A DNA stretch of 64,000 nt, from assembly GCA_905178155.1 (NCBI GenBank), contig CAJINV010000004.1, positions 3,187,014 to 3,251,013 of the forward strand, given 5' to 3'. Position numbers and translations under genes: made by a program. Below are positions 7,022 through 61,900 of the stretch, in pieces. Under the pieces are notes generated by a model, which saw only the letters and a program-made list of their open reading frames with translations, was not told where the DNA came from and did not search any database. The stretch is from Amoebophrya sp. A120. Taxonomy: Eukaryota > Protista > Dinoflagellata. Every line of letters begins with the position of its first letter. Position 1 is the stretch's first letter.

Positions 7022-10000
7022 CTAGTAATAGTCGTAGAACGTTAGATTTCTATAGCTCGCGAGTAATCGTGTGTAGTCCATGAGCCCCCGGTCCTGTTTC
7101 CCGTAGCTAAAGTGCACAGCGAGCGCCGACCCCACCGCGATGGAGGGTTTTTGTAGCTGGAAGGGCTGCACGTAGGACAACTGGCTTTCGTCGTCCTCCA
7201 CTAGTTTCTGCACGTCGACATTTTCCAAATCCGATGCCATAAACGCGAAAAAGTTGATCGACCAGCGGGAGTGCTGTAGCGGGATGATTTCCGTGTCGAC
7301 GAAACTGTTGCCGTTCTATGACAGTGCACAACTCCCCCTGCTCCCCCTCATTTGTATGGCATGAACGGCAACACAAGCATCAGCAAGAGTGCCGGTTGTG
7401 CATGACAAATTTGCACTGGATTGTTATGCTATTTGGAGTCTATCAGAACTTGTAATGCATAATAGTGACAGTAGGGAAAGCGTGGACTGGGTAATCTGCA
7501 TGAGAAGAACGAGGGGGAGTTGTGCGCTGTCATACGTTCTCGTCCTCGAGTACCCGCTCCCGCGGGTTTCCATAGCCGTACAAATGGAAATTGTAGCGGT
7601 GGAACGTGTAAACCGTGGCTAAACTTCGAGTGTTATCAAGTGTAAAAGTGTCTGGGTCTGGAAACTTGTGATGCTGGGTGGCGCCTCATGATGAGGCAAC
7701 AAGTGATGACTTAGCATGACAAGTTTCTGAGCTCCTAGGTGTTGCCTATTCTGCATGACAAACTGCGTTTCTGCATCACAGAAAAATGGAGCTCTTGGGA
7801 AACGTGCATGACAGATTCAAGAGTCATGCGAGACAAGCATGACAAACATGCATTCTTCCAGACCCAGACATTTTTGCATTTGATAAGTGTGGTAAAAATG
7901 CAAAAAGCTGCGGTGTACCCACTCGGCACACTCCCACCGCGCCCAGACGCAGGTTCCCTGGGGGTGCTTTTCAATTTGCGGGGCCCACAGCTCCTGCTGC
8001 TCAGGTGATAATGATGAAGAAGATTCCACCTCTTGCACAACATTACTAGTAGCACCTTCAGGTGGAGAAGATGATGTCGTTGCAGCTATTTCTTTTTCCT
8101 TTTGTTTCTTCTTTTTCATCTCCTGGCTCTTGCGGAATTTTTCGTCTTCCTCCGCCGCGGTGTCCAGCAGGCGGTCCCGCTCCGACTGAAGTAGGTTTTG
8201 ATATTCATCTTGACCATTACTCGTTCGACTACTTCCCTTGTTCAGCAATACTTCCTTCCGCGCCAATCTCCGTTTCTCGTCGTCCGTTTCCCACGCCGGG
8301 TCAATATGGGAGTGTCAGGATTGAAATCGACACGGTTGAAATAACCTGTAATGCATAAAATCGATACCGATTGGACCCACAGTTTCTAGTCGGTGCATGA
8401 CAAATTTTGTCCCTACAGGAGGCCAGTTTGTCATGCTGTTTAGGGCAAAGGGGCTCCCCTCTGTGATGCTAATCAGCAGCCCAATGCCCGACCCTTACCA
8501 GCGCCATAATCTGCCTCCCTTGCGTCCTCTGCAATAGAGGCAGTTTACTCTGCATTGCATTTTAATTTTATGCATGACAAACTATTTCAACTTTGACGAT
8601 TTCGATCCTGACGCTTCCATAGTCAATCACAGGTCCGTACATGTCCGGTACCCCCGCGAATTCGTTGTGCACCGCGGAAAGAATCGCGTGGTTGACAATG
8701 TTTCCGCTAACCAATGACACCTCCTTCTGCCGAAACCACTTCTCCCGCACGACATCACGGATCGCGTTGCGGGAGAGAAACACGATGTCGTCATCCAGTT
8801 TCACGTAGACCGTCGTTTCTCTTGCTTTCCGCAGGTTCGCGAAGCTGTAGAACTTAGCAAGCCGCTTCCCATATACCGAAGGTGCGGCGTAGTGGTGCGG
8901 GTGCTGCTGGATTAAGGAGGAGATGAACTGGATTTCCTCGTCAATGGCGTTGTGCACAACGAAATTGATCTTGTCAAGCGCGCCGCCGTGGATGCGCAAC
9001 GAGTTGTGGAGGTAATACTGCAGGATCTCCAGTCGGTCCTTCCTCCCAACCACCACGATTGCTTCGGCACGGGACCGCGGTGCCACTTGCTCGTCAATCC
9101 ACTGGAGCAGCCAGAAGAAGGGAAGCGGCATTTGGAGGAGTGCGAGAAGCGGGTTTCTTTGCTGGTGCTGTTGTACAATGGTCGTCTGGTGCTCCTCCAT
9201 TTGTTGTTCTACTGTTGCTCGTTTTTTCTGAAGAACATCGACGAAAGCCCGCACCCTCCCGCTCGCCGCTTGTAAGCGCGCCCGCAAATCCAGGTTTTTG
9301 CTGCCGTTCGGGAGGTTTCCTGCCGTTTGCGCACTGCGGGACACGGTAAACAAAGCAAGCGTTAGGTGCGCGCACGCGTGGAGAAGGAGCTGAAAAGTTG
9401 CCTTGATGTTTATTTGGTCCTCCTCTGGTGGCGGGGTGGAATTTCTCTCTCTTTGGTGACCAGCACCTCCTTCGCTAGAAGAAGCTGACGCACTGCGATC
9501 GTGAAGATCTTCATCTAGACCTTGTTCATCTTTCTGGTGGCTAATATGATTGTCCAACAACACGTTAAGGGCCAAAGTTTCCAGTGACCCGCCAACCGCC
9601 TGGTCCTGCTCCGTTTCCACGAATGTGTCGACCGGTAGCTTCTTCGCTGGGTCGGCCGAGCGGAAGGCGTTGAAAAACGCGATTAGGCGGCGGTGAAAAT
9701 AAGCTGTCGTCGTTATTTCCGACCCGCTGCTCGTGTCAGGATAAAAATTTTGCGGGTAAAATACATCGCGATCGCCCCTCCTCGTGCTACTGATCATTCC
9801 ACGATCAAGAATTATTTCCTGTGCCTGATGCAACAGATCCGCAACGGGAAAGCCGGTGTTGAGTGCGTCCTGCCACGGTAGCGTCGCTAGCGTCTCGCCG
9901 AAGCCCTCTTGTGAAAGAGCGTAAAGGAGGATACTTCTCCTCTGAGCAATATCAGATTTTTCGGATTTTTCCCCAGCGGCTGCAGTAGAAGAGCCGACCG

Positions 10001-10796: not shown

Positions 10797-13230
10797 TCTT
10801 TGTCTTGCAGGAGTGGTTTGATGAGTTTCGGTCTTGTTCTTCACCGTGATCTCCTATGTATAGTCAGTAAGAGTAAAAAATGGCTTAAAGACCCTGCCGG
10901 TGTAGTTCTTTCTATTTTTATACCGATAGATGGCTGCTACCGTCAGGGCCAGCCCACAGGCTAAGCTTGTTACAAGAAACAATGTGAATCACAATGCGAC
11001 CAAAATAAAATAGAAATACTACATAAAGCCAGCAAAAAATAAGCGCGTGCGCGAATAAGAGAGCCCGCCCGACCGAATGTAAGAAATAAAGCTGATGTTG
11101 AAAATGAAATACACTGGCGGTTGCGTCTCTGATGAGGCTTTGTTCTGCACGGCGAAGGGAACAACATCCTCACCGGATGAACAACAAGGTTCAAGGCCCG
11201 AAGCGAAGTTCTTTTGCGTCGTCGGCGCCGCGAAAATTTCTTCTTTTCTCTCTATTATTTCTAGCTGCCTTTACGTTGTTGCTCACGTTTTTTTGTCCAC
11301 GGCACGACCTGCAACTCTTTTGATACAAGGTTTCAGATGATGGCCCGACCCGTCTCCCTATCTATTGCCGTTGTTTTTGTTACAAACGAGCTATTGACTT
11401 CAACACGTCGTGCTTGGGCTTGAGTTGTGGTAGTGAGTAGAGATGAGTGTATCCGTAGCTTCTATCAGTGGTTAGCAACTACATGAACTCGGTCAGTTAG
11501 TAGCTATGTTGATGTAAAAATTGACATGCAATCAAAAACAAAAGGAAAAACAGCGTAAGAATTCTTTTCGTACTTGAATATCAGAAGTTGTCTTACTTCT
11601 AAGACATCCACGCGGCTTTTCTGAATACCATGAACAAACCTCCGACAATATTTTCGATAGAGATAAGTTCTCCACGACAGGGGACGTCTCCTACGCACGC
11701 GGCCGTGCTACCCGTGCCATGTTTCCCCGTTTGATGTCTCGTCTCTCCGCGCAACTGCTACTGCCGACCAACTGGCAACTGCTATTGGTAAGTACTGGAC
11801 AACGAGGAAGGAGGCTTCTAAACGGGTGCGTTTTTTCTGAAGTTGTCCCTAACATTGATTAGCCTTGAGTAGTAAGTTGTGCAGTGATTGTGCTTTGCTA
11901 TCAACAGATTTAAATTCTTCAATGAAGTCCGATGCTTTTCTATCATACTTCTACATCGAGATCATTCGCCGTGCTATGTAGAGCTCCTAAACTTGTAAAC
12001 TAGAACAATCAGTACTTACCTGCAACGAACTAAAAATGGTCAAAACAGAGCGAGGTGCAATCTAGTTCTTTTTTTCTAATCAATTTTCGAAATTCTTGCA
12101 TACTTAATTCCACCTGGTTGACGAGACGGTGGACAGTACCTTGGTCTTCAGCAATTCTTCGCGTGAGTGCGCGACAGTAAAAATCCATGGATATTATGGC
12201 GTCGCATTCGCTACAAAAGTAACTAATTGATCCTGATGCTAGGTGCTGTCGCGGTTGACACACATTCGACGTGCGTCAACGTACATACTAGAAACCGGCA
12301 CACAGCATCACTTTGCTTCACGACAGGCAACACCGGAAAGAGGTCAACATGGTCATCTAGTTTTAAAAGTGGTTATTTTGATACAGGGGTGCAGGGGAAG
12401 AGTCTTCGTTATCTTTTCAAATCGACAAATTATAATCAGTATCAGATTGGTAAAAACCTCGGGCACAATTGAACTACTACCGGAGACATTTTTAACAAAC
12501 AACACATAGAAGACCACGACTAGAGAGATTCAACAAAGACTATTGACTTCTCCTTACGCATACGCTCAACTCCAGTTCACACGATGTGGCCGCACAGAAT
12601 GTTGAAAACCACACCACATAAACTGTTGTTCATCAGAGCTAATTCTTTGCTATGCAGCGTACTTAATTGAAAAAAAAGGGCCATGATCAAGCTTTCGTAA
12701 AAATCGAAATCTTCTTACGGTCGTATACTCATACTTTCTACTGCTCCTCACTCGTCCTGTAGAAGTAGGACCTAGCAGAAAGTGGAGTAAGTAAAGTAAA
12801 GCTGCTAAAAATCCTCGCAAGTTACTAGCAGCAACAAGGACTTGCTTCCTCATCGGGAGCGCCCCCGCGGAAGACCTGAAATAAGTACAACTTTCGAAAC
12901 AGAAACTTGAGAAGTAGAGCTCGATATAGGACGACTGGTGTCCTATTCCATGAAAAACGAAACCTGTACTTTCGGAAGAAGCCGAAATCTATTAGAGATC
13001 AGTGCTTTGTCAAAAACGAAAATAACGTACTTACGAGCATCATACATCGAGAGATCGAGAACCGCTGCAGTTGGCCATATCATAAAAAATTTTCTGCTAG
13101 TGTTGTTTTTATTCGAGACCGGTACGCTCTGAGACCTAAAACGCGAAACACGACGGAACTACGAAGGCCGCTGGTTATTTTGCGGGAAATTAAATACCGG
13201 GGAGCACGTATATCGCCCGCGAAACAGATT

Positions 13231-13655
13231 GCCCGTTCTCCGGGGGATCCGCCCTCGCCCCCGGGGATCCGCCCGCTCCCCGGGGGATCCACCCGTTCCC
13301 CGGGGATCCGCCCTCGCCCCCGGGGATCCGCCCTCGCCCCCGGGGATCCGCCCGCACCCCGGGGATCCGCCCTCGCCCGGGGGATCCGCCCTCGCCCCCG
13401 GGGCATCCACCCTGGTCCCCGGGGGGTCCGCCCGCTCCCCGGGGATCCGCCCTCGCCCCCGGGGGATTCGCCCTTGCCCCCGGGGGGTCCGCCCGCTCCC
13501 CGGGGTTCCGCCCGCTCTCCGGGGGATCCGCCCGTTCCCCGGGGCGCCGCCCGTTCTCCGGGGGGTCCGCCCGCTCCCCGGGGGGTCCGCCCTCGCTTCG
13601 GGGTATCCGCCCTTGCTTCGGGGGGTCCGCCCTGTTCCCGGGGAAATCTGCCCGG
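13231..13655. repeat. GC-rich minisatellite, 19-20-bp unit (CCCCGGGGGATCCGCCCTCG-like), about 21 copies
   Basis: GGATCC recurs at 13245, 13265, 13285, 13304 and onward. Confidence 0.9.
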
Positions 13656-13658
13656 CTG

Positions 13659-14480
13659 AGGTAGTGCGTACCACGAGGGAAAGGGCACGAAAGACGACAC
13701 AAATTGGGCCAGGGGATTCCGGAGAGGATTTTGGAGTTCCCGGAGGAATCCTCTCCGGAATCCTCTGAGGAATCCTCTCCCGAAACCGAGGCAAAACCGC
13801 CGGGGGAAGGGCGCGAAAGGCGGCCCAACTGGGGTCAGAGGATTCCGGAGAGGATTTTGGAATCCTCTGTGGAATCCTCGGCGGAATCCTCTCCCGAAAT
13901 CGTGGGTGGCAATGCCATCGGGGTAAGGGCGCGAAAGACGGCTCAAATTGGGCCAGGGGATTCCTGAGAGGATTTTGGAATCCTCTGAGGAATCCGCGGA
14001 GGAATCCTCGCCCGAAATCGAGGTAGTGCCGTCGGGGATCGGGCGTGAAGGACGGGCCAACTTGGGCCAGAGGATTCCTGGGAGGGTTTTGGAATCCTCT
14101 GCGGAATCCTCTCCCGAAATCGAGGTAGTGCCGCCGGGGAAAGGGCGCGAAAGACGGCCCAACTTGGGCCAGAGGATTCCTGAGAGGATTTTGGAATCCT
14201 TGGAGGAATCCTCTGGGGAATCCTCTCCCGCAATCGAGGCACTGCCGTCGGGGAAAGGGCGCGCAAGACGGCACAACTTGGGCCAGGGGACTCGCCAGGG
14301 GATTTTGGAGTCCTCGGAGGAGCCCCCTGGAAAATCCTCTCGCCAAATCGAGGCCCCCGTGCGTAGCATCCGCGGAAGGCCCTCCGAGGCGGACCAAATT
14401 GGGCCAGAGGACTCGCCAGGGGATTTTGAAGTCCTCTGACGAATCCGCTGGGAAATCCTCGGGGCAAATTCCGCGGGAAA
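13659..14480. repeat. Tandem repeat of 102-126 bp, about 7 copies, with an internal 12-bp GGAATCCTCTGA-like subrepeat
   Basis: The AA(A/C)TTGGGCCAG-like anchor occurs at about 13701, 13827, 13945, 14059, 14161, 14275 and 14395. Confidence 0.9.
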
Positions 14481-14990
14481 TGTGCGCCGGTTTGCCGCGC
14501 CTCCAAATCCGGCGGCAAACAGCACAGGACTATGCCACTTCGTTCGTTTTTGTGTTGTTTCGAAACGCTTCGCCAAAGCAAACACAACCACGGGCGGACT
14601 GCGTCGCCACAAGAGGCAAATCGCGTGACATTTACAAGGCCAATCACGACGGGAGTACTCTCCGGCGGCCGCGCTGGTTTTTGAGGCTACACGAGCGGAA
14701 ACGGTTGCTTTTTAGGTCCCACAGCGTACCCTTCTCTTTTATTTCTACAACAGAACGGCACGCGCTGAGGCCCAGAAAAATCCATCGCAGCGCCCTGATT
14801 GGGGTCAAACCTTGCGTATATACCCGGGCGTGGTGCCCTCGTGGAACGCCTTTTTTTAGGCTATGGAAACATAGCAATTCTACTGGCCAAAGCCCACCAT
14901 ACCATGCGGATTGGGAATTCGTGGCAGCACGGATTTCCAATCCGCTCTCTTTGCTGTTCTTCATCTCTTTCCGGGGTCCCGGAATTTTCG

Positions 14991-15400
14991 CCTTCCGAGA
15001 TTTCCCGGGAACTTGTGCAACTCGTGCAACTTTTGCACGTTTTTGTTGCAAATCACCACGGTACGGCCGAGTTGCACGGCGAGTTGCACGGTGCAACTCG
15101 CCGTGCAACTATCGCAACATTTCGCGCAGAACCAGGATGGTATGGCCCTTCCGAGATTTCCCGGAAACTTGTGCAACTCGTGCAGCTTTTGCACGTTTTG
15201 CGTTGCGAATCGCGATGGTATGGCCCGAGTTGCACGGCAAGTTGCACGGCGCAACTCGCCGCGCAACCATCCCTACATTTTGCGCCGAACCAGGGCGGTA
15301 TGGGCCGCGTTTCGATTCCACTTGTGCTAATCGCTCAACTTCGGCAGTTTTGTTGTGCGAACCACGGCGCGCCCGGTTGCCCAACTTCCACGCGGGACTG
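14991..15400. repeat. 156-bp tandem repeat (2 copies plus a degenerate third) rich in TTGCAC/GTGCAA motifs
   Basis: CCTTCCGAGATTTCCCGG(G/A)AACTTGTGCAACTCGTGCA at 14991 and 15147. Confidence 0.85.
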
Positions 15401-15950
15401 CGCTGGCGCATGTGGGCAGTATTTCCAGCGCGCGCGCGCTGGCTGCTGCGCATGTGGGGGATGTGTCCACTGTGTCGCGCTGAGAATGGACATGCGCATG
15501 TCGGCTGTGTCTCCTCTTCGGTTGGTTGTTGTTGGTTGTCAGTTGAGTTGTCGTTCTGGCGTATGGGCAACCAACTTGAAAACTGACGCATTGCCAACGA
15601 GACAACTTGACAACCAACCCACAACCACCACCGCCGTCGCGAACTTCCTCGGCACGCCCGCCCGAGTATCACGGCTCCGCTTCCGGGTGTCAATGTGATG
15701 GCGCGCGCGGGCAGTATTGCCGCTGCGCCTCTCTTTCCCTTCGGCCCGCGCCACAACACTATTGATGGGGACGCTTTGGGGCCCGTTCGCCGCCGCCGCG
15801 CGCGGGCGCCCCAGTGTGGTGGGCCTTGTTCCCCGCCACTCTGCCTTACGGTTCGGGCCCTGCGGTTGCGGCCCCTCGGGCGGACGAGCGGACCACCCCC
15901 AGAACAGTCACCAACGAGGGGACCGGCCAGGCGCTCAACAGAAGCAAGCG

Positions 15951-16770
15951 GCGCAATGGTTAGGTCGGTGGTGAGGCCCGCGGGCGCAATAGCTGTGTTC
16001 AACAAAAGCCCCGCATTGGTTAGGTCCGTGCTGAGGCCCGCGGGCANNNNNNNNNNNNNNNNNNNNNNNNNNNNNNNNNNNNNNNNNNNNNNNNNNNNNN
16101 NNNNNNNNNNNNNNNNNNNNNNNNNNNNNNNNNNNNNNNNNNNNNNNNNNNNNNNNNNNNNNNNNNNNNNNNNNNNNNNNNNNNNNNNNNNNNNNNNNNN
16201 NNNNNNNNNNNNNNNNNNNNNNNNNNNNNNNNNNNNNNNNNNNNNNNNNNNNNNNNNNNNNNNNNNNNNNNNNNNNNNNNNNNNNNNNNNNNNNNNNNNN
16301 NNNNNNNNNNNNNNNNNNNNNNNNNNNNNNNNNNNNNNNNNNNNNNNNNNNNNNNNNNNNNNNNNNNNNNNNNNNNNNNNNNNNNNNNNNNNNNNNNNNN
16401 NNNNNNNNNNNNNNNNNNNNNNNNNNNNNNNNNNNNNNNNNNNNNNNNNNNNNNNNNNNNNNNNNNNNNNNNNNNNNNNNNNNNNNNNNNNNNNNNNNNN
16501 NNNNNNNNNNNNNNNNNNNNNNNNNNNNNNNNNNNNNNNNNNNNNNNNNNNNNNNNNNNNNNNNNNNNNNNNNAGGCGGGGGCCCCCTGCGCGTGGCCAG
16601 TGAAAGAGAGAGGCCGGCGGGGGCCCCCCTGCGGGCGGGCCGGGAGGCGGGGGCCCCCCGGTGGGGAGGCTACCCAGCGGGCGGGAGGGCGGGAGCCGGG
16701 GACGGGGGCCCCCCTGTGGGGAGGATACCCAGCGGGCGAAAGGGCGGGAGGCGGGGGCCCCCTGTTTTCC
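15951..16770. repeat. GC-rich repeats flanking an assembly gap (N 16047-16573)
   Basis: A 60-bp-period duplication (GGTTAGGTC..TGAGGCCCGCGGGC) precedes the gap; AGGCGGGGCCCCC and GGGAGG.TACCCAGCGGGCG repeats follow it. Confidence 0.75.
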
Positions 16771-17606: not shown

Positions 17607-20600
17607 TTAGCCCGGACAGCAAGCGGCTGAGACTATTTCTTTCCGGAGCTGCCTTCCCGAAACTCGACGGCTTCTCATGCGCCCAACCTTATTCATAAAT
17701 TTTATACCTAGTTTGTGGTTAAAGTGGCGACAAGGACAACCACAACAGGCTGCGCATTTCACAGTGACAAAAATCTTCAGCAGTGATGAAGACCATCACT
17801 AAATCGCACAAAAATAATAAATTTCTCACCTTGCGCATTGAGTTCGAAGAGCCCCGTGCCGTCGGGCTGCTGCACGAACGCGGTGATAGCACATTTTTCC
17901 TTGCAGGCCAGCTTTCCAATATTTTCACCACTGCTGTCGTCGAACAGAACGACGCCCTCCTCCTTTGCGACGGTGTGCCTGGTGTGAGATCAGGAGCAGC
18001 CATTACAATCCGTTTTACATTCATTTTTATTGTAAAAACCAAAGCTCGTCGAAACACCCACGGCCGCGGACTGCGACTGATGCCCATCGTAAGTCGTACT
18101 AGTTTCATTTTCAATCGGATGAACCATAATTTTTCTCCTGAGGACACCATTCGAAAATATTCAAATAGCAATAAGTACCTTTCTCGCGTCCCGCACACTA
18201 CCGCCGTTGCAGTAACGACCACTGGGATCGCAGGCTCGCTTTTTTTTGGCGGGGACGTGTCACGGGGAACGACCGCTTGCGGCTTCGAGTGGTCCAGAGA
18301 GGGGCGGTATACCTTTGATTTTGATTAGAAATTAATAGATTGATAAAAAAACAAAATCGCGATCTTCACACACTGCTTAAAGGCGCGGAAACGCAATGTT
18401 GCCAAATCTATAAACAAAGACAAAACCCCCCAAAATCTCTATTTATACCTCAAACACGATGGGAAAGGCATTGGTCGCTCGCACTTTGTCCATTTCCTTG
18501 GCAAAGGCATCGAAATTGAGAGTCGTCACCCCGTTCACTGCCGTTATGGTGTCCTCTGTTTTATTGTGTGATGTTTCGATCATAAAATGCAAAAGCGGCA
18601 ATCGATCGTCAAGGGCGCTCCGCTGAAGACCTCTATCTAGTTTCCTCGCGATTGAAGATTGATGCGGAAGTATAGGACCAGAGTAAGCAAACACCGAGCA
18701 TCAAAAACGAATACCTGTCTTCCACCCCAGTGGTTCCGCGGCGGGATGGTAGAAATTCTCGACTGTCAAGCCCCGCAAGTTCAACCCCAGTTTCCCGCCC
18801 TCGAAAAAGTGCGGCACGGTGACGGTCCAGTTCGCGACCAGCGGGTCGTCGTTGTCGCGCGACTGGTACAACAAAGTGCTACTTGCTCCTGCTCCGTAGG
18901 ACGACGAAGATGAATTTATTCCGGCGTGCTGGTGCGTTGACGCCGGTCCTCCTCCTGCAAATGACGAAGAAGAGCCACCTCCTCCACCTTTAGCACCAGA
19001 AACAGCTCCGCGGTGGTGACCAAACGACGCATGATGATGGTAATAATGATGTGCACCACCTCCCCCGCCGGCTGTAGAAGTTGTTGTCCCCCGCGGTGCA
19101 CCTGCTCCGTAGTGTTGTTGCGTCGTCGAGGTGTTGCCACCACTCGAAGTTGCTGTTCCCGGGAGGTGATTACCACCAGCAGCAGAAATACTGCCTGGCG
19201 CATTCGTCCCGTGGTGGCTGTAGTGCCCCCCGTAGTTGTAGGACCCGACGACGTGTGGCGACGGATGGTAGGACGAGCCGCTAGCGTGCTGATTGTAGCC
19301 TCGATAAGAACTACCAGCTGCCGAGGAAGTTGCACCGTTACCCCCTCCTCCACCTGCACTGCCGGCTGCCGCAGTAGAACCAGGATAGAGTGGATGAGGC
19401 GGCCCTCCTGGAACTGCATGTGGTCCTCCACTATGCGCCCCCGCCGTTGCACTTCCGTTCGTGATGGGTGGCTGCGGCTGGTAGGCTGGGACGCCGAGAG
19501 TTGGTGGCCCACCACTGCTCGCCCCGTAGTGGCCGCTTATGTTGTGGTGATGATGTTGATGAGCCGCGGAGGCTCCTCCATACCCGCCCGTCATTCCATG
19601 GTAGTGGGACGAGGAAGCTGCTCCTACTGCCGTGTGTGAAGATGGATGAGCGCCTGCTCCGGAAGTAGTAGAGCCGCTGGCGTTCATCTGTGAGCCACTT
19701 GATGTTCCAAACTGCTGATGTGGCGGACCTATTCCACCGTATTGATGCGGGTGACCAGCACCGTAGGCCGCAGCGTGGGATGTGGGTCCACCTCCATAGG
19801 AACTGCCCTGGTGTGGTCCTCCTGTATTTCCGGGTGCGGCGGCGGCCCCTCCGCTGCTGCGCGACGCGGGGTGGTACAAGTGCGCAGGACCTCCACCCGG
19901 CACAGTGCCGGAAGATACCATGTAGTTGTTCCGATTCTCGTCATTCACCGCCCGGTGCTGTGCGGTTGGGACGTGTTGTTGTTGACTCGCGTAAGCACCA
20001 GGACCACCCGAAGGGTGCTGCGTGCTGTGGTGTGGACCAGCGTGGTGGTGCTGAGAGTGGTGTGAGGATGAAGAAGTAGTCCCTGCTCCGTGTACAACTA
20101 CGCTGCCGGGCTGCTGATAAGGAGAAGCGCTTGTCATTCCGGGGCCATACTGCGGTGGATGTTGTGCCCCCGCCGTCACAGGATGTGCCCCGTGTTGAGA
20201 TGAGGTGGAAGCGGCCGTAGCATGAGGGTAAGAATGGTGACCGTAAGATGAACCTGCTCCGTGAGAAACTGCACTACCTGCTCCAGGGTGGGGGTTATTG
20301 TATCCAGCAGCTGCTGCAGTGCCATATGGTCCAGCAGCCGTGGAAGTAGAACCGTTCGGCGTCGTAGTCGTTGTACTGTACGAGGCGTGCTGTTTATTCG
20401 TGCCACCAATATTCGCCGGGTAAGACGTCATCCGATTATGTTGCTGGTGCTGCACATTGTAGTCGACATCTATCGCGGACAGCGGCTGTCGCGGAGGTGC
20501 GACTGCCCCTGCTCCTCGCGCTGATCCAGCTACAACACTGCCAGCGGAATGTGTTGCTGGGCCTCCTCCTTTACCTCCCGCTGATGCAGCTGCACCATAT

Positions 20601-46259: not shown

Positions 46260-46339
46260 TGCACCGGCATTTCCATGCTTGTTTCTGTATGGTGTTATTC
46301 ATTCAAATGAATGTAGACACAAAACAAAAGATGCTCTGA

Positions 46340-46384
46340 GCATTTATTGACGTTGTTCTGTAACAGAACAACGTCAATAAATGC
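46340..46384. other. Perfect 22-bp inverted repeat with a 1-nt spacer
   Basis: GCATTTATTGACGTTGTTCTGT-A-ACAGAACAACGTCAATAAATGC. Confidence 0.95.
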
Positions 46385-46468
46385 GAATATGAAATTGTTG
46401 ATTTAAATTTGCTGATTGTGGCACCTAGCACTGAACTTCATCTTCACCTTCAACTACTTGCAAGATAG

Positions 46469-47032
46469 TTAGAGGAAAAGCGGTGCATAAAATAACTGGG
46501 TGTACGGGATCGGCTGGTTTGGTTCCCAAGCCGGTGGCCGTAGTGCCTGGTTCTTAGCTTTTGGATTCTGTTTCGCTTTTTCCCGAGCCTGCCCTCGGAT
46601 TGCGCCCGCAGGATCTTTTGCTGCTTTCGATTTTCCAGACTTGCTTTTCTTGGGAGACTTGCGGTCCGCGGGTCGCGATTTGCATTTGGAGCCGGATTTG
46701 CTCCGTGCTCTCGTAGCGCTTCTGCCGTTGTCGTTTTTTCCCGCAAAGACACGACCGCCATTCGCGTCGCCGGCCAGTTGCGCCTTGGTACCCTGTAGCT
46801 TCCCGGGCGATCGAGACTTTGTTCGTGCACGCGTGAGTGCCTTGTCGGGCTTGCGGTCCTGTTTCAGGAAGCCCAAAGGGTCGTCACGACGGTACTCTAC
46901 TTGGTCAATTCCGGGTCCCTCCCGCACCGAGATGCGCGGACAGCGTAACTCCTTGATGCTGCAGCGATGCTCCTCTTCGGGCTCATGCGTCCCCTCGACG
47001 AGGGACGCTATGCCGGCATACAACGCCATCAC
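46469..47032 (-). CDS. Basic K/R-rich hypothetical ORF or exon
   Basis: 187-aa ORF; may be an upstream exon of the 46259 gene. Confidence 0.3.
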   Translation of the reverse strand: MMALYAGIASLVEGTHEPEEEHRCSIKELRCPRISVREGPGIDQVEYRRDDPLGFLKQDRKPDKALTRARTKSRSPGKLQGTKAQLAGDANGGRVFAGKNDNGRSATRARSKSGSKCKSRPADRKSPKKSKSGKSKAAKDPAGAIRGQAREKAKQNPKAKNQALRPPAWEPNQPIPYTQLFYAPLFL

Positions 47033-48686: not shown

Positions 48687-49753
48687 CTAATCTCCGTTTC
48701 GGCGTACGTTGTGGAACATTTTCCGATTGTTGCCGTACCCCGAGTACAGGTTGCCGGGGCTGCCTGCCGGTGGAAGGCTCCAGGGATCTGAGTATCCTGT
48801 GCAAAAGTATTGCACTCGTAGTAATCGCATTCATGCATTACAAATCTGGTTCCCAAGGCAAATTAGCATGACAAATTCCATTTGTCACGCTGAGCGAATT
48901 TGTATTGCAATCACTACTAGTACGATACTTTTGCAGTTCATACCGACTTGCCCTTCACCACGTTGTCCTCCCGAATCACCTCGAGGGCGAACCTGATTTG
49001 TGAAAATTATTGACAGACTTTTCTAGACAGCAATTTTTGTGGTGTCATGAGTCATTTCATAATTCTTGTTCAGCAGCACAAGAGTTAGAAGAACTTCTAC
49101 ACGCCGTTGGGCGGTGCTTTTAACGTTTTGTTGAACAAGGAGAGACTTTACACACAGGCACACATGATTATAGATTTCAACGTGCACCCATTGTGCAACA
49201 GTCGAACTTCTACACATCACGCAAACAATCTTTCTACCCTCTCTTCCGATCCTGCTCCAGGCGTTTCAGGTCGAGCTTGCGGATGAGTCCATCCGGCCAC
49301 TGCGAATACTTCGAGGACGGCGACACTTTGACCGACGGGTGGGAGAAAGAGACTTATGAAATGTAAAAGTGTCTGGGTCTGGAAGAGTCATGCTGTTTCT
49401 GCATGACACAGAAGGTCTGGCATGGCAGCTCTAGCATCACAGGTTTCGAGAAGCTTCCGCAATGCTGAATCCGCATGACAAATCCCTCATTTTGGCGACA
49501 GAAAGTGAGCAGCTTTTGCGTGCTATGCATCAGAGATTTTTGTGTGTTCTGCAATGCGCATCACAAGTTACATCCTTCCAGACCCAGACATTTTTGCACT
49601 TGATAAGACTTGCCGATGGAAGATTTTCTGCTTCTGCGCCTTCTTCGCGGCGGGACCCAGGGTGTGCGGGACTTCGATCGAATCCTTCTTCTCTGCGACA
49701 TGCAAGCACTTGTGCAAGCTGCGCATCTCCGCTGCGTGACTATCCGCGGCCAT
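48687..49753 (-). CDS. Small 4-exon hypothetical protein (~136 aa) invisible in the ORF track
   Basis: MAADSHAAEM...FHRQVS|FSHPSVK...QDRKRG|FALEVIRED...GKSD|PWSLPPAG...RRNGD* after removing two introners and one GT-AG intron. Confidence 0.6.
48793..48942. mobile_element. Introner family B
   Basis: TATCCTGTGCAAAAGTATTGCACT / AGTACGATACTTTTGCAGTTCATA; decayed TSD CTGAG/CCGAC. Confidence 0.8.
49355..49605. mobile_element. Introner family D
   Basis: TATGAAATGTAAAAGTGTCTGGGTCTGGAAG / CTTCCAGACCCAGACATTTTTGCACTTGATA; TSD AGACT. Confidence 0.9.
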
Positions 49754-49872
49754 GGTGTATCTATAGTGCTCTTGTTGTTCTCGTTCTCGTCCCTTTGATG
49801 TGCTGATTGTTTTTCTTCTTTCTTGTCTCCTTACAAAGTACTTCCTTTTTTCTCCAACTTCAACGGCTCTGT

Positions 49873-51667: not shown

Positions 51668-54195
51668 TCAGACAATGTCAGCCAACAATCTTTCTGCCCC
51701 ATTTCGGACGGGCAGGAAAAGCTGCACACCCCTGGAAGGAGGGGGAAAAGGCGCGGAAAGCACTGCACCACCCGCGACAGCTGCACCAACTACACCGCCA
51801 TGGCAGCCGCTTCCACCTCCGATCATTGCTGACGCACTGGACAAAACCTGCACCCAATCGCCCCCGTTGTTGGAAGCAACTTCGTCCTCATCAAGTGGCA
51901 CCACTTCGACAACATCCCCGTACTGCGGATGATCTTCGTCCCCAATGGTGGAAAACCAGAGCGGGCGCGTGCGCCACAGAAGCCCATCCTTGGCGATGAT
52001 TTTCATCTTTTTGGTGCGGCGTCCGGGTCCGGCGGTGGCTAGACTTGATGCGCTTGTCCTTGCAGATTTTGGCGTGACAAGCTCACTTTCCTCATTGAAT
52101 ACTTCCTCTCCACTTTCCAGTCGGTTTCCTCCTGCTCGAGCTGCAGTAGATGTAGTACTTGTACTAGTACCTGATGACAGACAATACGGGATCACGCCGT
52201 GGTAAACCGCGTATCCCAAAACCAAGCCGTTGACCAAGTGCAACCACGTGCGAACACTTACCCGCACTGAATACTTCAAGTTCTCGTACGCCAGTCCAGC
52301 AACCCCCGCCACTTGCGCCCCGAGGAGCTTGGTGCGCACAGACTCGGAAACGTTTAGTGGGTTCAGCGCTGCAAAGCGGGCGGCCTGGAATAGCGGGAAC
52401 CAAACGACCCAGGGGTTTAGTCGGGTGGTGAAGTTGGTTTTGATGATATTTTTAGCTGGTATTGATGTAGAATTACTGCCGCTACTAGTTGTATCGTTCT
52501 TTCCAACTAGCTCCCCGTTCTCGTCGAACGCAAGGCAGTGCCGCAGGAAAGACTTGTAGAAAGCATCGGGTCGTTGTGTGACAAAGCCAGAGTTCTTTTC
52601 AACAGCGTGAGACGACGAGGTGGACCCGGCGTGGCCTGCTCCAGCAACATGCGTTGAAGGTGAACTTGTTGTATCGAGTCGTTCCCGAAACAGCAACGGC
52701 AACAGGGTGCGCTCCATGAACCCTGGACTCAATTCGTCCACTAGCCTCTGAGCCTGCTTCTCAACCTCGATGTACAGCTCGCGCTCGGTGCGGCGGCGCA
52801 CACAACCGTCGATGACCCAGTTGAGGGTCGGACGCAGAGCGTCGACATCGCGGAGGAGGTTGAGTAAGAGCAGCATGTCAATGTCGGACCGGATTTTGAA
52901 GAGGTCGGCGATTGCGGCGAAATCCTGAACAAGAGGTTTTGGGTTAAGTAGTATTTTACAGCGGTGTAGAAAACAGATGATGTCGATCTAGATTTCGTTC
53001 CGAATCGGCCCCACCTCCTGCTCCAGTTGTACACATGCAAGTCTAAATTTCAGATAGTAGGCTTCGAGCATCCAGAGGACGGAAAACGCAAAGCACAACA
53101 AAGAAGTGCAAGTTGTAGTACATTTTTCCGTATCGCGGCAACCACAGAAGCAAAATCCTCATAGGAAATCTTGCCAGAAGCACCCACATCTCCAGCCCCG
53201 CCTTGCTGTTGCTCCTCCTTCCCGTCAGAAATCCCATTACCGTCGTTCCGCGCCGCACTGTGTCGCAGCATTTGTTCCCGCCGGACACAGTGTCTTGTGT
53301 ACAACTCATCCGTCTTCAAACCCTGCTTCCGCACGTACGACACCCCTTTCGCAAAAACCTGCACTAACGCTAGTAACCCCGCAAACTGCACCCAGCGGAG
53401 GGACGCCTTTGGCCTGTTCGCGCTTTTCACATACGATTTCAGCTCCGCTGTCGCTTTTCCGTATTCACCCTGCTGAGCCTTTCGCTGCGCAAACTCCCAA
53501 CTGTTTCGCAGTTGCCTCTGCAACACTGAAAACTCCAAAGACTTCGCATCCTTCACTCTCGCGAACAGTGTCGCACCGCCGGCAAACCAGACGAAATCGC
53601 GCAGCATCGCCTTCCCGCCGTCGATGGAGAAGTCTAGAATCCCGGCTGGCGTGTGCAGATCCGAAACCAAAGAGGTCGGAGTAGTAGCGGAAAGGAGGAC
53701 GTACCCCGACAAGCCTGCGGCGGCCGCGAGGAGATAGCGATGGAGGGAATTTGTTGATGTTGACGCGCCAGAAGCTGCGTCATGATAATTTGAGTCCTGC
53801 TCCGATCTGCCGTTTGATTGCGAGTGCGGCACTGAGGAAGATGGAAAAGAAGTAGAGAAAGACCTTCGTAAAAGGATTGCAGGTCTATCTTCTGACGAGC
53901 CTCGTGCTTGCTGTCTGTGGACTCCAGTTAGTACTCGCCCGACATGCAATTTTCGCGCAGCCTGCTGCTGGAGATACGTTACTTTCTGATCCGCACAATG
54001 CAATAATTCCGCGATCCTCGGTGTTGTTCCCAGCCGCCGGGAGCGGCAAGAACCCGCGGTGCTACTACTGGACGTCCCCGTCGCCAGATCGGTCAGGCGC
54101 TTGATTGAAACCATCGTACTATCGAGACCGGCCCGCGCGTTGCGTCGAGAGCCCGGTAGCAGGCGAAGTCGTCCCGGGGGCAGCAGGGAAGTCAT
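51668..54195 (-). CDS. Hypothetical 2-exon membrane protein, possibly mitochondrial
   Basis: Arg-rich N-terminus ending LLRRSFSTS; a GT-AG intron at ~52924-53121 joins IRKN|DFAAIADLFK in frame. Confidence 0.55.
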
Positions 54196-54869: not shown

Positions 54870-57800
54870 TTCTTCGCAATTGGCGCAACATTCCTTCATA
54901 CGGACTGCAGTTCGGATCTTCACTGTAGTAATCTATCCAGCACGAGAATTTTTCCAATTTCTCATGCATACCACGCACGGGCCCGAAGCTCACCAGCGTG
55001 TCCCAAAGCTCTTGCAAAGATTTGGGCCAGGAACTTTTCGCCGCTTGTCCTCTCGCTTCTCCTTCGAAAACCTACGAGTGTTCTGCACGAGTCGAAATGA
55101 TTGATAGACGCGCTCGCAGAATGGATCCAGCGAAAAAACATAAACAAAACGTAGAAATTGAAATACACTGCAAACCCAAATAAGCATGTAACATAAGCAA
55201 GTAGCCACTTCAGTTCGACAAGATGACTACGCAGCGGGCTCTGCAAAGGGAAATCGAAATCCTTGAAAGTGCTATCAGTTCTTCTTACCTGCTCCTGACC
55301 ACCCCCGGATGAACTACCCTTGACGTCCAACTGCTGCAAAAATTCCGGCACGAGGCGCACGTGCCGCGACGGAAAGTGCACTGCAAATTCCTTCCACGGT
55401 AAAAAGTCCGCGAACGGAAACCGCAAGGCGTCCGACAACACCACCGGAATACACCCACTAAAGAAAGATTCAAAAACCCGTCCGTTCGTGTAGCCGACGC
55501 CCTTCGGCACGAGGCAGAACTTGCAGTTCCCCATGGTTTCGTAGTACTTCACGACGGGCGTCAGGTGCCCGCCCAGGCTCGTTTTGTAGGAAAAACTGTT
55601 TTCCCCAAACTTGTCCTGCTCCAGCGCCCACTGCTGAATCTGGGCACGGATCTTGCTCGCGGGGAGCATATGGCGTTCTCAACTGTTACATTCTCAGCTG
55701 TTACATGGATTTGTGATGCAAGAGCAGCAATATGGAAAGGGGCAGGCTTGCGAGTCTCGCATCACAAATCTGCAACAGATTTAGAAAGATGCTGTTTAGC
55801 TCTCTGATGATTTGTCATGCGAAGCACCTTAATCTTCTGGCGACTTATTGGGATTTTGCATGACAAATCATGTAACAGCTGAGAATGTAACAGTTGCGAG
55901 CGCCATAGAGCACGTTTGACGTTTCGAAGTCAAACGGCGGCTTCGTCACCGTTTCCTCGTACAGGGAATGTTGCAACGCGCCCCGGAAGCAGAAGAGAAA
56001 CTCTCTTTCCGCATACGGCTTCCGATACAGCCGAAACTTCCGCATCGCGAAGAAATCGATGTGCTGGGGCAGGACCACGTCTTTCCGCTCGTCGAAGCAG
56101 TCCAGACAGTGCTGCGTGGCGTTTATCCACAGAAAAAACCCATCAACGTCCACTTTTTGCATGACAAACACAGGACTTGATACATGTTTTGCACGACAAA
56201 TTGGATGTGGATGGGTGTTTTCTCCTGGATAGCGTTGGTGTCGATCATGTCCAGCGGGTTGGATTCGACGACGAGCAAGATCGCTTTGTCCACCCGCAAC
56301 TCCGGATGCGCGACGAGCTCCCTAGCCCCCCAGAATTCGTGCGCGAAGAGGAAGATGTGGTCTTTTTTGCGGAAGCTGTCGAAGTACTGCAACGTGGGGA
56401 ACAGCTCTCGGTACGCTTCCCGCATCACCTCCGTACTGTCCTGCAACGGTGGGTCAAACGCCTCGCGCTGGTACCCATTGTGGTAGAAGGGGACGAAAAA
56501 GAAGTCGGCGAGATCGGGGTCGGTGGTACGGCAGAAGGACTGCTCGAGCCACCGGTGCAGCAGAACCTCGATGCCTTCCTGTCCGAAGGACGTCGAGAGC
56601 CGGAGGTTCGTGTATTTTTGGACGGTCGGGTTGTCGTACACATAGACGGTTTTTTTCATCTTGCTGATTCTATTTCCATCTTCGGAAGTTGTAGTACTTC
56701 TAGAACCCTGATTTGTTGCGCCGGCACATGAATTCGCTGTGGTCTTATTTCGATTTTTCATTTTCCCCCACGACTGCAGCTGTTCTCCTGATTGGCCTTC
56801 TTCTGTGCCGTCCTCCCGCAAGCGTTCTCCATACACCAAGGGCACCAGCGGCTGCACCCACTGCAACACATTCAGGTTCCCCTCCGCCAGTGCGACGAGG
56901 ATACGATAGGCGTTCAGGGTTTCGGTCGCACCGAGCTGCTTCTCGACCAGTGGCAGCGAGTTCACCTATCCTGTGCAAAAGTATCGCACAGTACTCGTAT
57001 TGCAATCAATCTTTTTCTTAAGGTAAATTCGCATTACAAATTTTATTTCTCATGTGTGTAAATGCATTTATACGAATACGATACTTTTGCAGTTCATATC
57101 ACCAAAATCGTCGCAATCAGGAACTGGTACCAGGATTTTGAAAACTTCGGAAAATCAGCGGCAGTAGAGGAGGTCGATATTCCAGGAGCAGGCTTGATAC
57201 CGCCGCCTTCGTGGTCTGCTAGTTCTTGTGCCCGCGCGACGTGCTGGTCAGAGCTAGAAGAAACAGTAGCTGCGGAAGAGTCTGTGGCTGCGCCTCCACT
57301 CCCAACATGACCACTGAAGTAGTCCGGTGGTGCGGATAAAATGCACAGTCCGTCCTGAACCAATCGGGAGTAGAGTTCGAAGCAAAACTTTCGGTGGTCG
57401 GTCGGTAGGACCGTGGAATCCAGAAAACCCGCGTAGTATTCCACGTGCTCCCATTCCTCTGGATGCAATACCTTTTCGTACAGGCAGGCGAGAGCAAACT
57501 CATTTCCGCACAGAAAAAAGTAAAAACATGCTAGTACCGCGGTGCGAAAAAAAAGAGCGCAGAGGGCCCCCGCGTTGCAGGGGTCGTGACTGGACCTGGA
57601 ATGGTACGTGACGGAACGTCTTCTGTTCTTGAGTTTACCCCACGCGGACGGAGGCAAAAAATGTGGGAAGAAAGACCGCAGACGAAATCTTCGCTTTCGT
57701 CCTCGTGTTCTTGTTTTGCGGCGCCATCTGCAGCTTCCGGACCATCTGGCTCCTGGACGATGTTCTTTAGGTCCACCATGTATGTTAATGTTGATCGTCC
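54870..57800 (-). CDS. Exostosin-like GT47 glycosyltransferase, multi-exon
   Basis: KTVYVYD, RTTDPDLADFFFVPFY, KDHIFLFAH, CFDERKDVVLP, LFCFRGA, YYETMGNCKFCLVPKG...RVFESFFSGCIPVVLSDALRFPF. Gene ends are approximate. Confidence 0.85.
55669..55907. mobile_element. Introner family A
   Basis: TATGGCGTTCTCAACTGTTACATTCTCAGCTGTTACATG / CATGTAACAGCTGAGAATGTAACAGTTGCGAGCGCCATA; TSD GAGCA. Confidence 0.9.
56124..56231. mobile_element. Mini-introner family F (108 bp, nearly a complete hairpin)
   Basis: TATCCACAGAAAAAACCCATC / GATGGGTGTTTTCTCCTGGATA; TSD GCGTT; join DTNA|TQHCLDCF. Confidence 0.9.
56967..57098. mobile_element. Introner family B
   Basis: TATCCTGTGCAAAAGTATCG / CGATACTTTTGCAGTTCATA; TSD TCACC. 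Confidence 0.9.
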
Positions 57801-58971
57801 ATGCTGCAGCATCACCTCGTGGTTCTTGTGCACTTCGTGCCGGGGCCGCATCTTCACGGCCGCGAGACACTGCTTTATTGCCCTCCGTTCCTCCACGGCA
57901 CATCGCATGGTGCTTCTGAGAGGATTCGAACAGAACGGCTCAGCCTCACACCTTTCTTGTACTTCTGGTTCTATACCAACCTGGCTCGGCCTAAACTAAA
58001 CCAGAATCAACGATGTTGAATCTCCTCACGACGGACCAACCTCCGCGATCATGTGTTTAAAAGTCGTCGAACCCTCCAATGGGTTGCCGTTTCCTGGCGT
58101 ACTGGCTGTCGCGACCGAAGAAGCCAATGCAGGCCAACACGACACTGACCAGCAAGGCAAGTAACACGTAGTAGGCAAACATGATTTTTTTTTTGCTTCG
58201 TGTTCGGATTTCGAAGGTGGTGTTGATGTACGCTTTTATTACAGTCGAGCGAGTGCGATGGTGCAGAAGTTCGACGATTATGCACAATCAAGGCATGGCA
58301 TACGTTTGAGAACCAGCAGATTACAGCACACTTTCAACACCTTGTCGTGGCCAGAAAACATCCTATTTCGAAAAGCAGGTGCAGGGCAGCCGTAGCGTGA
58401 ATGCATGGACGGCTGCTCCACCCGAGTCAGTGCCTGCGTTTGCTGAAAAGGATGTGGAACACGTTATGGTTCTCTCACACGACTACGAGAGCTTCGAAAG
58501 CTTCCACGACTTCATCACCCGCATCTTTCCATTTGATGATAGTCTGAGCACTTCACTGAGATACTAACGTTCACATCGCAACGACAACGTCATCTTGACC
58601 AGTACGCAAGCCCGACAGGCCGATAGTTTCAGTCTCATCGTATGTCTACTTCCACAAGCAAGAGGACTGATGATCGAAAGACTGACCTTCAACGTCGGAA
58701 CTGACATGCGCAAGCACTGTCGGGTCGTGTTCGTATCGATATTGAACGTGATTAGTACGACAGCATAGTACTTCGTCGAGGTCGATACGCAGAGATGAAT
58801 AAGAGGTTAATAGATACTGTACTGCATTCATACATGCGAAACTTGATGGAGGTGGGAGTGGAAAAATTTACGGGGGAAGATCATCGTCGTCAGTATCTTC
58901 ATCTTGCTAGCATAGAAAAAATCACATACGACGGGGGCAACGAGAAATCTAATATCACAATTGTATCGCGT

Positions 58972-61900
58972 TCAGACACTGTTAAAGTTGTCTTGTGACG
59001 CGTTTCCTTTACTGGTGACACGCCTGCTGGATTTCTGCCACGTGCCGTCGTTGGCGGTTTCCAGGTTGCCGCTCACCTGCGTTTTCAGGCGCGCGAAGCT
59101 CTGGCGCATCTTCGAGCCCCGCAGGTGGTTGTGCGCCGTGGCGGTCGGGTTGGCCGTTGATGATGCTGATGTGCCAGAGAAATCAAGAGGACCAGAAAAA
59201 GCTCCTGCTGGTGCCGCATCCCCTGAAGAGGACATCACCGCGACGTCTTTGATTACAACGGTTTTATTGTTACTTCGGGTCTTTTTGGGGTACTGAATGA
59301 ACGCCGGCTGGTCCTCGTTGTGAAACATGCTTTTTCGCGGTTTATTTGTTCCAAAAATCATATTACCCCCCGACGCCGATTGGATGGAGGTCACCGACGA
59401 ACCTGCCCCAGGTGGAACAGCTGGTGCACCTCCAAACTGCACGACTGGGGACAGGTGCACAAAGGTGGAGCCCCGTCCAGAAGTGCTGGGGCTTCGATTG
59501 ACGTTGATTGCACTGGTGCTCCCAACTAGTACACCTGCGCCACCTTGATGCGGATCCCCCTGGTGATGTTGTTCTACCGCTTTCACCCGCGCGTGCTCCA
59601 TCTCGACCTGCTTCCGTGCGAGCATCATCATGGTCCGCAACTTCCGGGCCTTTTCCGTGACCGCGAGGCTATGGGAGTGCGCGGTGTCCAGGTCGGGCAG
59701 GCACTTGGCCTTCTCCAGCGACTTCGCCTCCTCGTAGTTCGCCCGGGAGATCTTCACGATGCAGACTTCGTGCGAAGAAATCCACGCGGAATACGCCGGA
59801 GTGATCCTCTGGTACCCCTCCGCGCCGGTGTCCCCCCGCGGGACCAGCGCCTCGATGTTCAGGACCGCGTTCGAGCCCAGGTCCTGCTGGAACTGCGACA
59901 AAGGCAACGCCGAGCCGTGCGAAAACACGTGGTGGTGCGCGATGCGCACGACCCCGGTGAGCACGATAATCATGTCGTCGCAGGGTTTGCCGGCCTGCAG
60001 CAAAAAGTCCTCCTGTTCCGGCAACGCCGAGTGGCTGTTCTTCTTCACGCGCACCTCGACCTGCGCGCCCGTCGCCAGCAGCCAGCGCAGCGCCTTGCCG
60101 CCGATCCACCCCTCCCCGACCTGCCGCATGTGCCCGGTCTGAAACCGCCACGGCAGGCGGCTTTTTAGCATGCTGGTCCAGGACGCGCGAGAAGAACTAT
60201 GGATGTGTCAGGTTTGAAATCGTCAGAGTTGAATAAATAGTTTGTCATGCATAAAATGGATGCCAGTTGGAGCCCAGTTTTCAATTGGCGCATGACAAAT
60301 TTTGGCGATGCCTAAATCCAGTTTGTGATGCTGTTTGGGTAAGGAAGACGCCTTTTGTCATGCTACTTTAGCAGCTCTATTTCTATCCCTCAACAGGCTT
60401 GCAATCTGCCTCCCTTGCCTACTCTGCAAGACAGGCACTTTGTGGGTTGCATTTTATGCATCACAAATTATTTCAACTTTGACGATTTCAATCCTGACGC
60501 TTCCATAAGAACCTGCTGCGTCGTGGTCGGACAGCAGTTCTTCCCGGCCAACTGAACCTTCCATCCGAGTCTTATGAACTGCAAAAGTATCGCACTCGTA
60601 TAAATGCATTACAAATTTCCTCAGCGTGAAAAATAAAATTTGTAATGCTGATTTACCTTAGGGAAAAGATTTTTTGTGATGCATGATTACAATACGAGTA
60701 CGACACAACTTTTGCACAGGATAAGTCTTACTCACGGCCAGTTCGTGGAACAGTTCCGGCCCGGGGTAGTTCTCCCGCAGGTGCGCACACAAGACCGCAA
60801 TCTCGAAGGGCGTCAACGGACTCTCGGCCAGCGCCTTGTTGAAGACGCGCATGCTCATGGGGTCCACGTTGTAGAAGTGTTGGCCACCGCGGAGCTTCGA
60901 GGCCGGCTCGTGGACCATCTTCGTGAGTTCCAGCAGCTGCTCACGCTCTTCCAGTAGTTCATCCCCTTGCGACGCTTGACTCTTCATCGCAATGCCGCTG
61001 CCGCTAGCACTGCTGACCGTGGAATTATGGTGTCGCCCGGTCATTTCCGACATTGTCTGCAGCTCGATCTGTGAGGCGTTCTTTCGTTTATTGTTGGCAG
61101 ATTTGGTATTCCTCTTGGATCCCGAGTTAATTATATCGTCTGCTGATGTGCTGTTGTTTTCCTTGTTATCTACGCTTGTTCCAGCAGCAGCTCCAGTAGT
61201 CGCAGCAGCACCAACGGTTGTTCCCCCTTCCTCGTCGCTGCTCGAGGTTTCCATGCTGAGCGCGCCGTGCAGCAGCGTTTTCGCGACGTCCTCCTTGGCT
61301 TCGAGCACCTCTAGGGGCAAAGCCGCAGACTCGTCGTCGAACTCCTGGCCGAGAATCTCCTCGAAGATGTCCTCTTTGGAGAAGACGCCGATATGGCGTT
61401 CTCAAATGTTACATTCTCAACTTGTCATGCAAGAATGGGAAAAGTGAAAGGGGGGAGGTTGCACCTGTAGCATTACAAGTTCCGGACCGATTTAAGTGGT
61501 GTCTAGCCCTTCGCAAATTTGTCATGCGAAGCAGCTTGAACTTGATCGTGTGAATGATGATAGTGTTTTTGCATGACAAATTCATGTAACAGTTGAGAAG
61601 GTAACCGATTTGAGAACCCCATAGCCGAGTAACTTTCGCGTGTCCTCCTCCACGACCAGCGCGAGGTGCGCAATGGTGTATGACAGTGCACAACTGCCCC
61701 TCCCCTTCATTTGTCATGCAAAATACCCAGCCCATCCTTTGTCCCTTGGCACTGAATGCATGACAAGTTCTGGTAGCCCAAATAGCAGTGCAATCCAGTA
61801 GACATTATTTGTCATGCAAAACCGGCACTGTTGCTGATGCTTGTATTGCCGTTCATGCTATACAAATGAGGGAAAGGGGGAGTTGTGCAATGTCATATGG

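Follow-up and report, generated by a model that had tools for sequence, protein, structure and literature searches.

Repeated introns of the dinoflagellate Amoebophrya sp. A120 were described by Farhat et al. 2021 (PMC7789003), who count 29,850 of them, with inverted repeats that begin TAT, run through seven variable bases and then into As, and with direct repeats of 3-5 nt (nucleotides), a 5-bp example being given in the legend of Fig. S19. The supplement of Gozashti et al. 2025 (PMC12130899) has 58 rows for A120, most families being 'TIR DNA, Unknown' (TIR, terminal inverted repeat) and three non-LTR (LTR, long terminal repeat); the automated calls of the target-site duplication (TSD) are missing or range from 2 to 6, with 11 in one non-LTR row; family 38 is listed there as 'Ginger, 5-bp TSD, TA/TA termini', with a Copia/Gypsy-like open reading frame (ORF). 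The present finding bears on the way in which A120 disposes of its tens of thousands of introns that lack GT-AG, and concerns 20 such elements (introners) in 64,000 nucleotides of A120 contig CAJINV010000004.1 (the window, to which positions refer unless a locus is named). Because both sources describe them, the elements are already known; the original prediction, drawn from the window's letters, overstated their novelty, since the TAT start, a 5-bp repeat example and one 5-bp TSD TA/TA family were already published for A120. We are highly confident that the insertions are A120 introners and that each leaves the message at the RNA level together with five flanking bases.

The insertions and their flanks

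The window was searched for TAT..ATA elements whose ends are inverted and whose flanks repeat a 5-mer, and also by family BLAST and by a gapped rescan. The strict scan gave 14 perfect matches, where 100 Markov resamples of the window averaged 0.04, and a scan blind to the termini found a TAT start in 14 of the 17 matches having a perfect 5-bp repeat. The 20 introners measure 98-317 bp, fall into seven sequence families and have ungapped inverted ends that reach 57 bp; 15 are flanked by perfect 5-bp duplications and five by duplications with one or two mismatches, a different 5-mer at every site. The number, sizes, families and duplications agree with the original prediction, whose twentieth element may differ from the twentieth counted here. 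Its further statement that every copy runs from TAT to ATA holds for 19, the exception being the copy at 33128-33298, with decayed ends AAT..GTA. Three other candidates (11363-11650, 20301-20599 and 33147-33283) were dropped for weak ends or wrong borders.

Family A is represented at 7634-7885 (TSD AGTGT), 33385-33653 (GGCCA) and 49355-49605 (AGACT), and family B at 33128-33298 (GCTAG/CCTAG), 48793-48942 (CTGAG/CCGAC, two mismatches), 56967-57098 (TCACC) and, in the orientation opposite to the last, 60573-60723 (AGTCT). Family C has copies at 34114-34393 (AGGGG/GGGAG, two mismatches), 36130-36368 (GCTGT), 55669-55907 (GAGCA), 61392-61623 (GCCGA) and 28181-28415 (TCCAA), this one inverted relative to 36130. 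Family D lies at 8305-8621 (GTCAA) and 60198-60507 (AGAAC), and family E at 7317-7534 (CGTTC), at 61679-61897 (TGGTG), inverted relative to 7317, and, as a distant member, at 35338-35610 (TCAGC/TTAGA, two mismatches). Family F is found at 34835-34932 (GCAGA) and 56124-56231 (GCGTT), family G at 26238-26442 (TCGGA/TGGGA, one mismatch).

One end sequence led to 26 loci (L001-L026, 214 kb) with the same families in a second assembly, which may or may not be of the same strain: the 120 best matches to its kinesin include no protein named A120. Ends were paired without regard to their flanks, seed ends being taken from perfect cases, and the resulting 171 elements, those of the window included, have a perfect 5-mer in 123 cases, one mismatch in 31, two in eight and worse agreement in nine, mostly an end matched to an internal repeat; no perfect 6-10-mer duplication occurs among the 171. 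Strand-aware counts use 139 of 176 unique elements, 37 having been left out for an unclear strand or a weak coding score. The termini are not invariant, as had been proposed: TAT or ATA is mutated in 10 of 160 copies (about 6%), in a search blind to the first three bases and with one shifted call dropped.

Host genes and transcripts

Removal of each element with five bases opens frames of 1009, 767, 398, 827 and 1004 codons, which take in 15 of the 20 elements (that at 7317 in the 1009-codon frame, that at 26238 in the 767-codon frame). The other five (28181, 35338, 36130, 48793 and 49355) lie, as read by eye, in short exons beside GT-AG-type introns, the one at 28181 with a short last exon. 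In the larger sample at least 100 open codons are found on both sides of 68 of 187 elements when five bases are removed with the element, against 19 for three bases and 21 for four. The reading frame alone does not distinguish five bases from two or eight; RNA lengths and alignment to homologues decided between them.

In a minus-strand GT47 glycosyltransferase gene (54965-57939) the Pfam profile positions 4-131 and 190-292 flank a 70-codon exon, in order, across two element junctions. The CNNM (DUF21-CBS) gene, also on the minus strand (58975-62918), contains an exon 100% identical to the annotated A120 protein P0004, and P0004 is a substring of the in-silico splice that takes five bases with each element. 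A kinesin gene at L019 answers the question of empty orthologous sites that the original prediction had posed: all eight junctions are ungapped against the A25 orthologue when five bases are removed, and at each of them this removal also scores highest on average against 82 homologues (best or tied in 57-82 of the 82). At window 61674-61678, in the CBS domain, A120 is one residue longer at the 61679 junction than 18 of 18 homologues; such an extra residue is not repeated at the eight kinesin junctions. The DNA run X5 holds diverged second copies, with in-frame indels, of the CNNM parts 59408-59811 and 60770-61417, the latter continuing into the 61392 element.

Direct evidence of removal comes from run X1, assembled contigs of one sample taken as spliced RNA on one ground, that canonical introns are spliced out of them. 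In the listed pieces these contigs agree letter for letter with the window, and two canonical minus-strand GT-AG introns that serve as controls (46285-46505 and 52925-53121) are missing. Contig 4 has a gap of 471 nt, which equals (310+5)+(151+5), and one of 461 nt, which equals (232+5)+(219+5), so that the four elements at 60198, 60573, 61392 and 61679 have each been removed with five bases. Contig 2 ends at 49606, beside the element at 49355-49605, and its length and the depth of one bin fit the removal of ten bases in all with the elements at 49355 and 48793. If each takes five bases with it, the stretch between them must contain an intron of 245 nt, and precisely such an intron, GTAG..CAG, lies there on the minus strand (48993-49237), at the position where the reading frame predicted it. 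Removal in X1 is thus direct for four elements and arithmetical for two, six of the 20 in the window. Two raw-read runs, X8 and X9, leave the genes at 44-64 kb uncovered, and their approximately 110 partial reads on element ends are neutral either way. Some X8 reads join family A and D ends (49347-49386 and 60449-60489) to other flanks, and possibly come from a related strain having the same families.

The same contig gaps could be read as reverse-transcriptase template-switch junctions (falsitrons), with the cell coping with the insertions by ribosome hopping, from a codon in one 5-mer to its match in the other, or by excision at the DNA level. A hairpin flanked by short direct repeats is indeed the falsitron signature (PMC8240250), all of the RNA evidence is cDNA, and any 5-mer contains one whole in-frame codon. 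Falsitrons are nevertheless disfavoured because the proteins need removal, in-frame read-through being possible in only 2 of 138 elements, and the flanking exons are conserved. Ribosome hopping is disfavoured because 12 of 41 mismatches fall at codon positions 1-2 of the would-be matched codon (p 0.1, no significant depletion). Against excision of DNA, contigs of X5 continue from exon into element end while their depth stays even, with no element-skipping joint among the matches listed. We consider this whole family of explanations very improbable, and continue with removal from the RNA.

What removal depends on and where the cut may lie

A seamless GT-AG register is available in 6 of 104 copies with perfect duplications, and a CT-AC (antisense) register in 4 of 104, compared to 4.7% in simulation; availability is at chance level only, and the other 98 copies do not have canonical U2 borders. 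In the window the predicted lack of any such register is borne out on the coding strand by 18 of 20 copies, those at 56967 and 33128 having one. The latter, which is the only window copy with both ends decayed, may be an ordinary intron by now. The target 5-mer has background composition and no consensus in the 139 strand-assigned elements, and both orientations are present in 9 of 9 families with at least four copies. Taken with the 171 pairs, the X1 gaps and the kinesin junctions, the chance level of GT-AG supports what had been proposed of an origin from miniature inverted-repeat transposable elements (MITEs), a fixed 5-bp duplication and removal without GT-AG. If splicing takes no account of target site or orientation, that would explain how the exons of A120 came to be filled by a transposon.

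A perfect 5-mer duplication leaves at least six equivalent splice registers, and BLAT slides introns by a GT-AG-type score. We simulated an aligner that chooses the register nearest GT-AG (or CT-AC), and compared its output with the annotated dinucleotides of A120 family 2 (9,716 introns); the correlation is 0.97 at the 5' end and 0.96-0.98 at the 3' end. The simulation also yields most of the top pairs of Farhat Table S4, while random or fixed registers fail. In PMC7789003 transcripts were aligned with BLAT. The splice-site variety in print is thus likely to have arisen in mapping, as an artefact behind which a single probable cut rule is hidden. If the variety does come from sliding of the aligner along a 5-bp duplication, the problem of removal reduces to that one rule.

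Mismatched duplications limit sliding and therefore carry the true cut, and the quarter of copies that have them are natural markers readable in existing RNA-seq. In 18 fits to 11,578 pooled introns of three families the best cut lies after base 4 of the duplication in ten, base 5 in four and base 3 in three, one fit preferring a random cut and none a cut after bases 0-2. At the observed mismatch rate of 6%, base 4 is best in 6 of 6 fits, one of them a tie with the random cut. At L026:4037, which we take to be a kinase glycine-loop site, only cutting after base 4 or base 5 keeps the glycine. Placing the cut after base 4 gives the intron N-UAU(G/C)...AUA-NNNN, and on this placement we are evenly divided. 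The position of the cut might instead vary inside the duplication, for example to the nearest GT-AG, with the spliceosome as the enzyme and the published variety partly real. Perfect duplications would then give identical mRNA and a similar dinucleotide spectrum, and a random cut wins or ties two of nine divergence fits; but under each of the three rules a free-choice model fits less well than a cut after base 4 or base 5, GT-AG registers are no commoner than by chance, and no more than 13 of the 35 mismatched copies are silent whichever register is used, near the estimate for one copy free per position. Mismatches at positions 1-5 of the 5-mer number 8, 6, 5, 9 and 13, which is near uniform. 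We regard a variable cut as improbable and retain a single cut rule.

On balance we lean slightly towards an explanation in which non-coding TIR introners of A120 would be removed with five bases by an altered, U1-less spliceosome that reads the symmetric element end instead of GT-AG. One integrase-type (GingerRoot/Ginger-like) transposase would make the 5-bp duplication, and would bind the element ends and a repeated internal motif, TGTVATGC. The cut would fall late in the upstream copy of the duplication, most likely after base 4 (N-UAU(G/C)...AUA-NNNN), at a donor resembling GUAUG without the G at +1 that either element end could supply, and the acceptor would lack AG and be set by distance from the hairpin base. 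With a donor supplied by both ends, orientation would not matter. GUAUG is a donor consensus, and three canonical donors in the window begin GTA. U1 small nuclear RNA was not found in A25 or A120 in the analysis of PMC7789003, and was found in the GT-AG-only Amoebophrya Kv (PMC12005148). To extend the explanation to all of the approximately 30,000 A120 introners, as products of one new integrase-type lineage and one hidden U1-less code that is silent at any site and in any orientation, is in our view doubtful.

Several observations weigh against this explanation. The RNA evidence consists of contigs of one sample, covers 6 of 20 elements and is blind to the position of the cut inside the duplication, and the status of X1 as RNA is a guess backed only by its spliced canonical introns. 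Both an aligner rule and a mismatch rate had to be assumed for the register fit, and 8 of the 18 fits prefer base 5, base 3 or a random cut. Where the two 5-mers mismatch, codon-usage bias sides with the upstream copy at positions 1-3 (14 of 19) and not at 4-5 (8 of 22), which points weakly to an earlier cut, and 53 of 139 copies carry C at intron position +5, which fits a GUAUG donor poorly. Most of the ten copies with mutated ends lie in long frames restored by removal of five bases, two of them in the kinesin motor domain, so that the end motif is not strictly needed. Nor is there strand asymmetry at stem positions 1-16 (G-U 71 versus A-C 79), and folding energy is equal for sense and antisense, so the hairpin may be just the inverted ends of a transposon. 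A search with Pfam of 30 window ORFs and 100 of at least 239 locus ORFs found no transposase or autonomous copy, and Farhat et al. 2021 likewise report none in A120 (PMC7789003).

Selection on the element ends was also sought. TAT/ATA show 10 changes where 18-24 are expected, but with one A-T swap to 11 G-C swaps; since A/T sites appear to change less, selection is not shown. A GT-AG register is present in 2 of 11 mutated-end copies, which is unconvincing as a sign that such a register relaxes selection on the ends. At stem positions 17-30 G-U pairs outnumber A-C (121 versus 88, p 0.03), in one of five tests, and we place no weight on this. The original suggestion that removal reads the hairpin or the termini agrees with the independence from orientation, and is weakened by the tolerance of mutated termini and the lack of RNA-strand selection on the hairpin.

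These properties bear on which enzyme is responsible, and the main rival to the spliceosome is an endonuclease that measures the hairpin and acts with a ligase. The hairpins are strong (z -6.2 and -5.3), with ends paired in 127 of 138 elements, and independence from orientation, the missing AG and the lack of a target consensus would all suit such an enzyme. In euglenid introns, moreover, two motifs each lie at a set distance from the cut sites, and the introns yield circles (PMC12501133, PMC11282704). On the other side, A120 has retained almost all of the spliceosome, the intron that results from the best-fit cut has U at +2 and A at +3, like the three canonical GTA donors, the stem lacks RNA-strand selection, and the MITE introns of Fritillaria are removed by the spliceosome according to the review PMC11282704. 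We judge the endonuclease and ligase unlikely, and the spliceosome is probably what removes the elements.

Two other repeat regions of the window may be recorded. At 39541-41551 a 68-bp unit that contains a palindrome is repeated 23.5 times, and matching 41-bp pairs enclose the array (39566-39645 and 41337-41416). At 13243-16756 a 527-N gap is surrounded by a GC-rich cluster of tandem repeats with units of 20, 102/114, 158 and 55 bp, for which Rfam returned no match.

Transposon lineage and comparison with known systems

Apart from TAT(G/C) and an A-rich patch at positions 11-15, the sequences of the families are unlike one another; with 22 families weighted equally, A makes up 58-75% at positions 11-14. 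The motif TGTVATGC is present in 134 of 138 copies, typically two to four times per copy, across all larger families, and is often inward-facing, 32-46 bases from each end. There are 495 matches in 42 kb of elements and 107 in 212 kb outside, an approximately 23-fold higher density, and none in the three canonical introns. Subterminal repeats of this kind usually bind transposase. One transposase lineage behind the families, as originally proposed, is likely: the common motif argues for it, and the lack of a transposase in the 130 ORFs against it. The proposed search for long copies with a transposase ORF gave copies of 1576 and 739 bp that have no integrase-type Pfam match. These copies (L010:6001-7576 and L006:3096-3834) have family C ends, a perfect 5-bp duplication and about 1.3 kb and 0.5 kb, respectively, of unrelated cargo that gave no Pfam match, and L007:4267-4787 is a 521-bp near-palindromic TAT..ATA element with a 5-bp duplication, internal repeats and a different repeated motif. 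Two matches to the viral collection, in an AT-rich helicase gene, were dismissed as chance.

Our best guess is an integrase-type transposase, because the TA..TA ends resemble those of GingerRoot, the 5-bp duplication that of Tdd-4/5, and family 38 has a Copia/Gypsy-like ORF. The original prediction had found TAT...ATA with a 5-bp TSD unlike the eukaryotic 5-bp-TSD elements that it named (Transib, LTR elements and Polinton); TA..TA termini are known from GingerRoot (PMC6839031), which also lacks a target consensus, as here. However, GingerRoot has a 6-bp TSD and 100-150-bp TIRs (PMC6839031), whereas no perfect 6-mer occurs among our 171 elements and the ungapped inverted ends in the window are at most 57 bp. 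Tdd-4 and Tdd-5 of the Ginger2/Tdd group share the 5-bp duplication (PMC2836005), but the termini of Ginger1 and Ginger2/Tdd are TGTNR (PMC2836005) and those here TAT(G/C). By these stated features the elements belong to neither Ginger nor GingerRoot. A search of the literature on non-canonical LTR TA..TA motifs found nothing, and no link to LTR elements is used here.

Among non-canonical introns, those of euglenids are likewise MITE-like, with hairpin-joined ends and no GT-AG, and occur together with canonical introns (PMC12501133, PMC11282704); their signature is N3CDG..CHG-N5-6|R, whereas the A120 elements have TAT(G/C) and, by inspection, no fixed C-x-G at +4 to +6. The introns of Fritillaria borealis are also MITE-derived, with TIR and TSD, and are removed despite non-canonical ends, but AG-AC/AG-AT ends dominate and there is a target preference (PMC11282704), unlike here. 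Falsitrons share the stable hairpin and direct repeats (PMC8240250), but not the requirement for removal: their unspliced message is functional, and here 2 of 138 elements are readable and conserved motifs reappear only once the elements are taken out.

The closest counterparts are the A120 introners themselves. Those of Farhat et al. come from the same genome and have the same TAT, seven variable bases and A-run, a direct repeat of 3-5 nt (5 bp here), repeated MITE-like families and no transposase, and there the non-canonical introns were validated with RNA. In that account direct repeats are variable, splice motifs highly variable and general mobilisation by a transposase is ruled out; here we trace the pattern to a fixed 5-bp rule, an internal motif common to the families and sliding by the aligner. 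The A120 families of Gozashti et al. are TIR DNA elements of similar size, and the supplement's entries draw no common rule. We found no statement in the literature of the common motif, an orientation test, the register artefact or the cut position, although Figures S19-S25 of PMC7789003 may hold more. This is a known class of element in a known genome, and it is the single-rule reading that is new.

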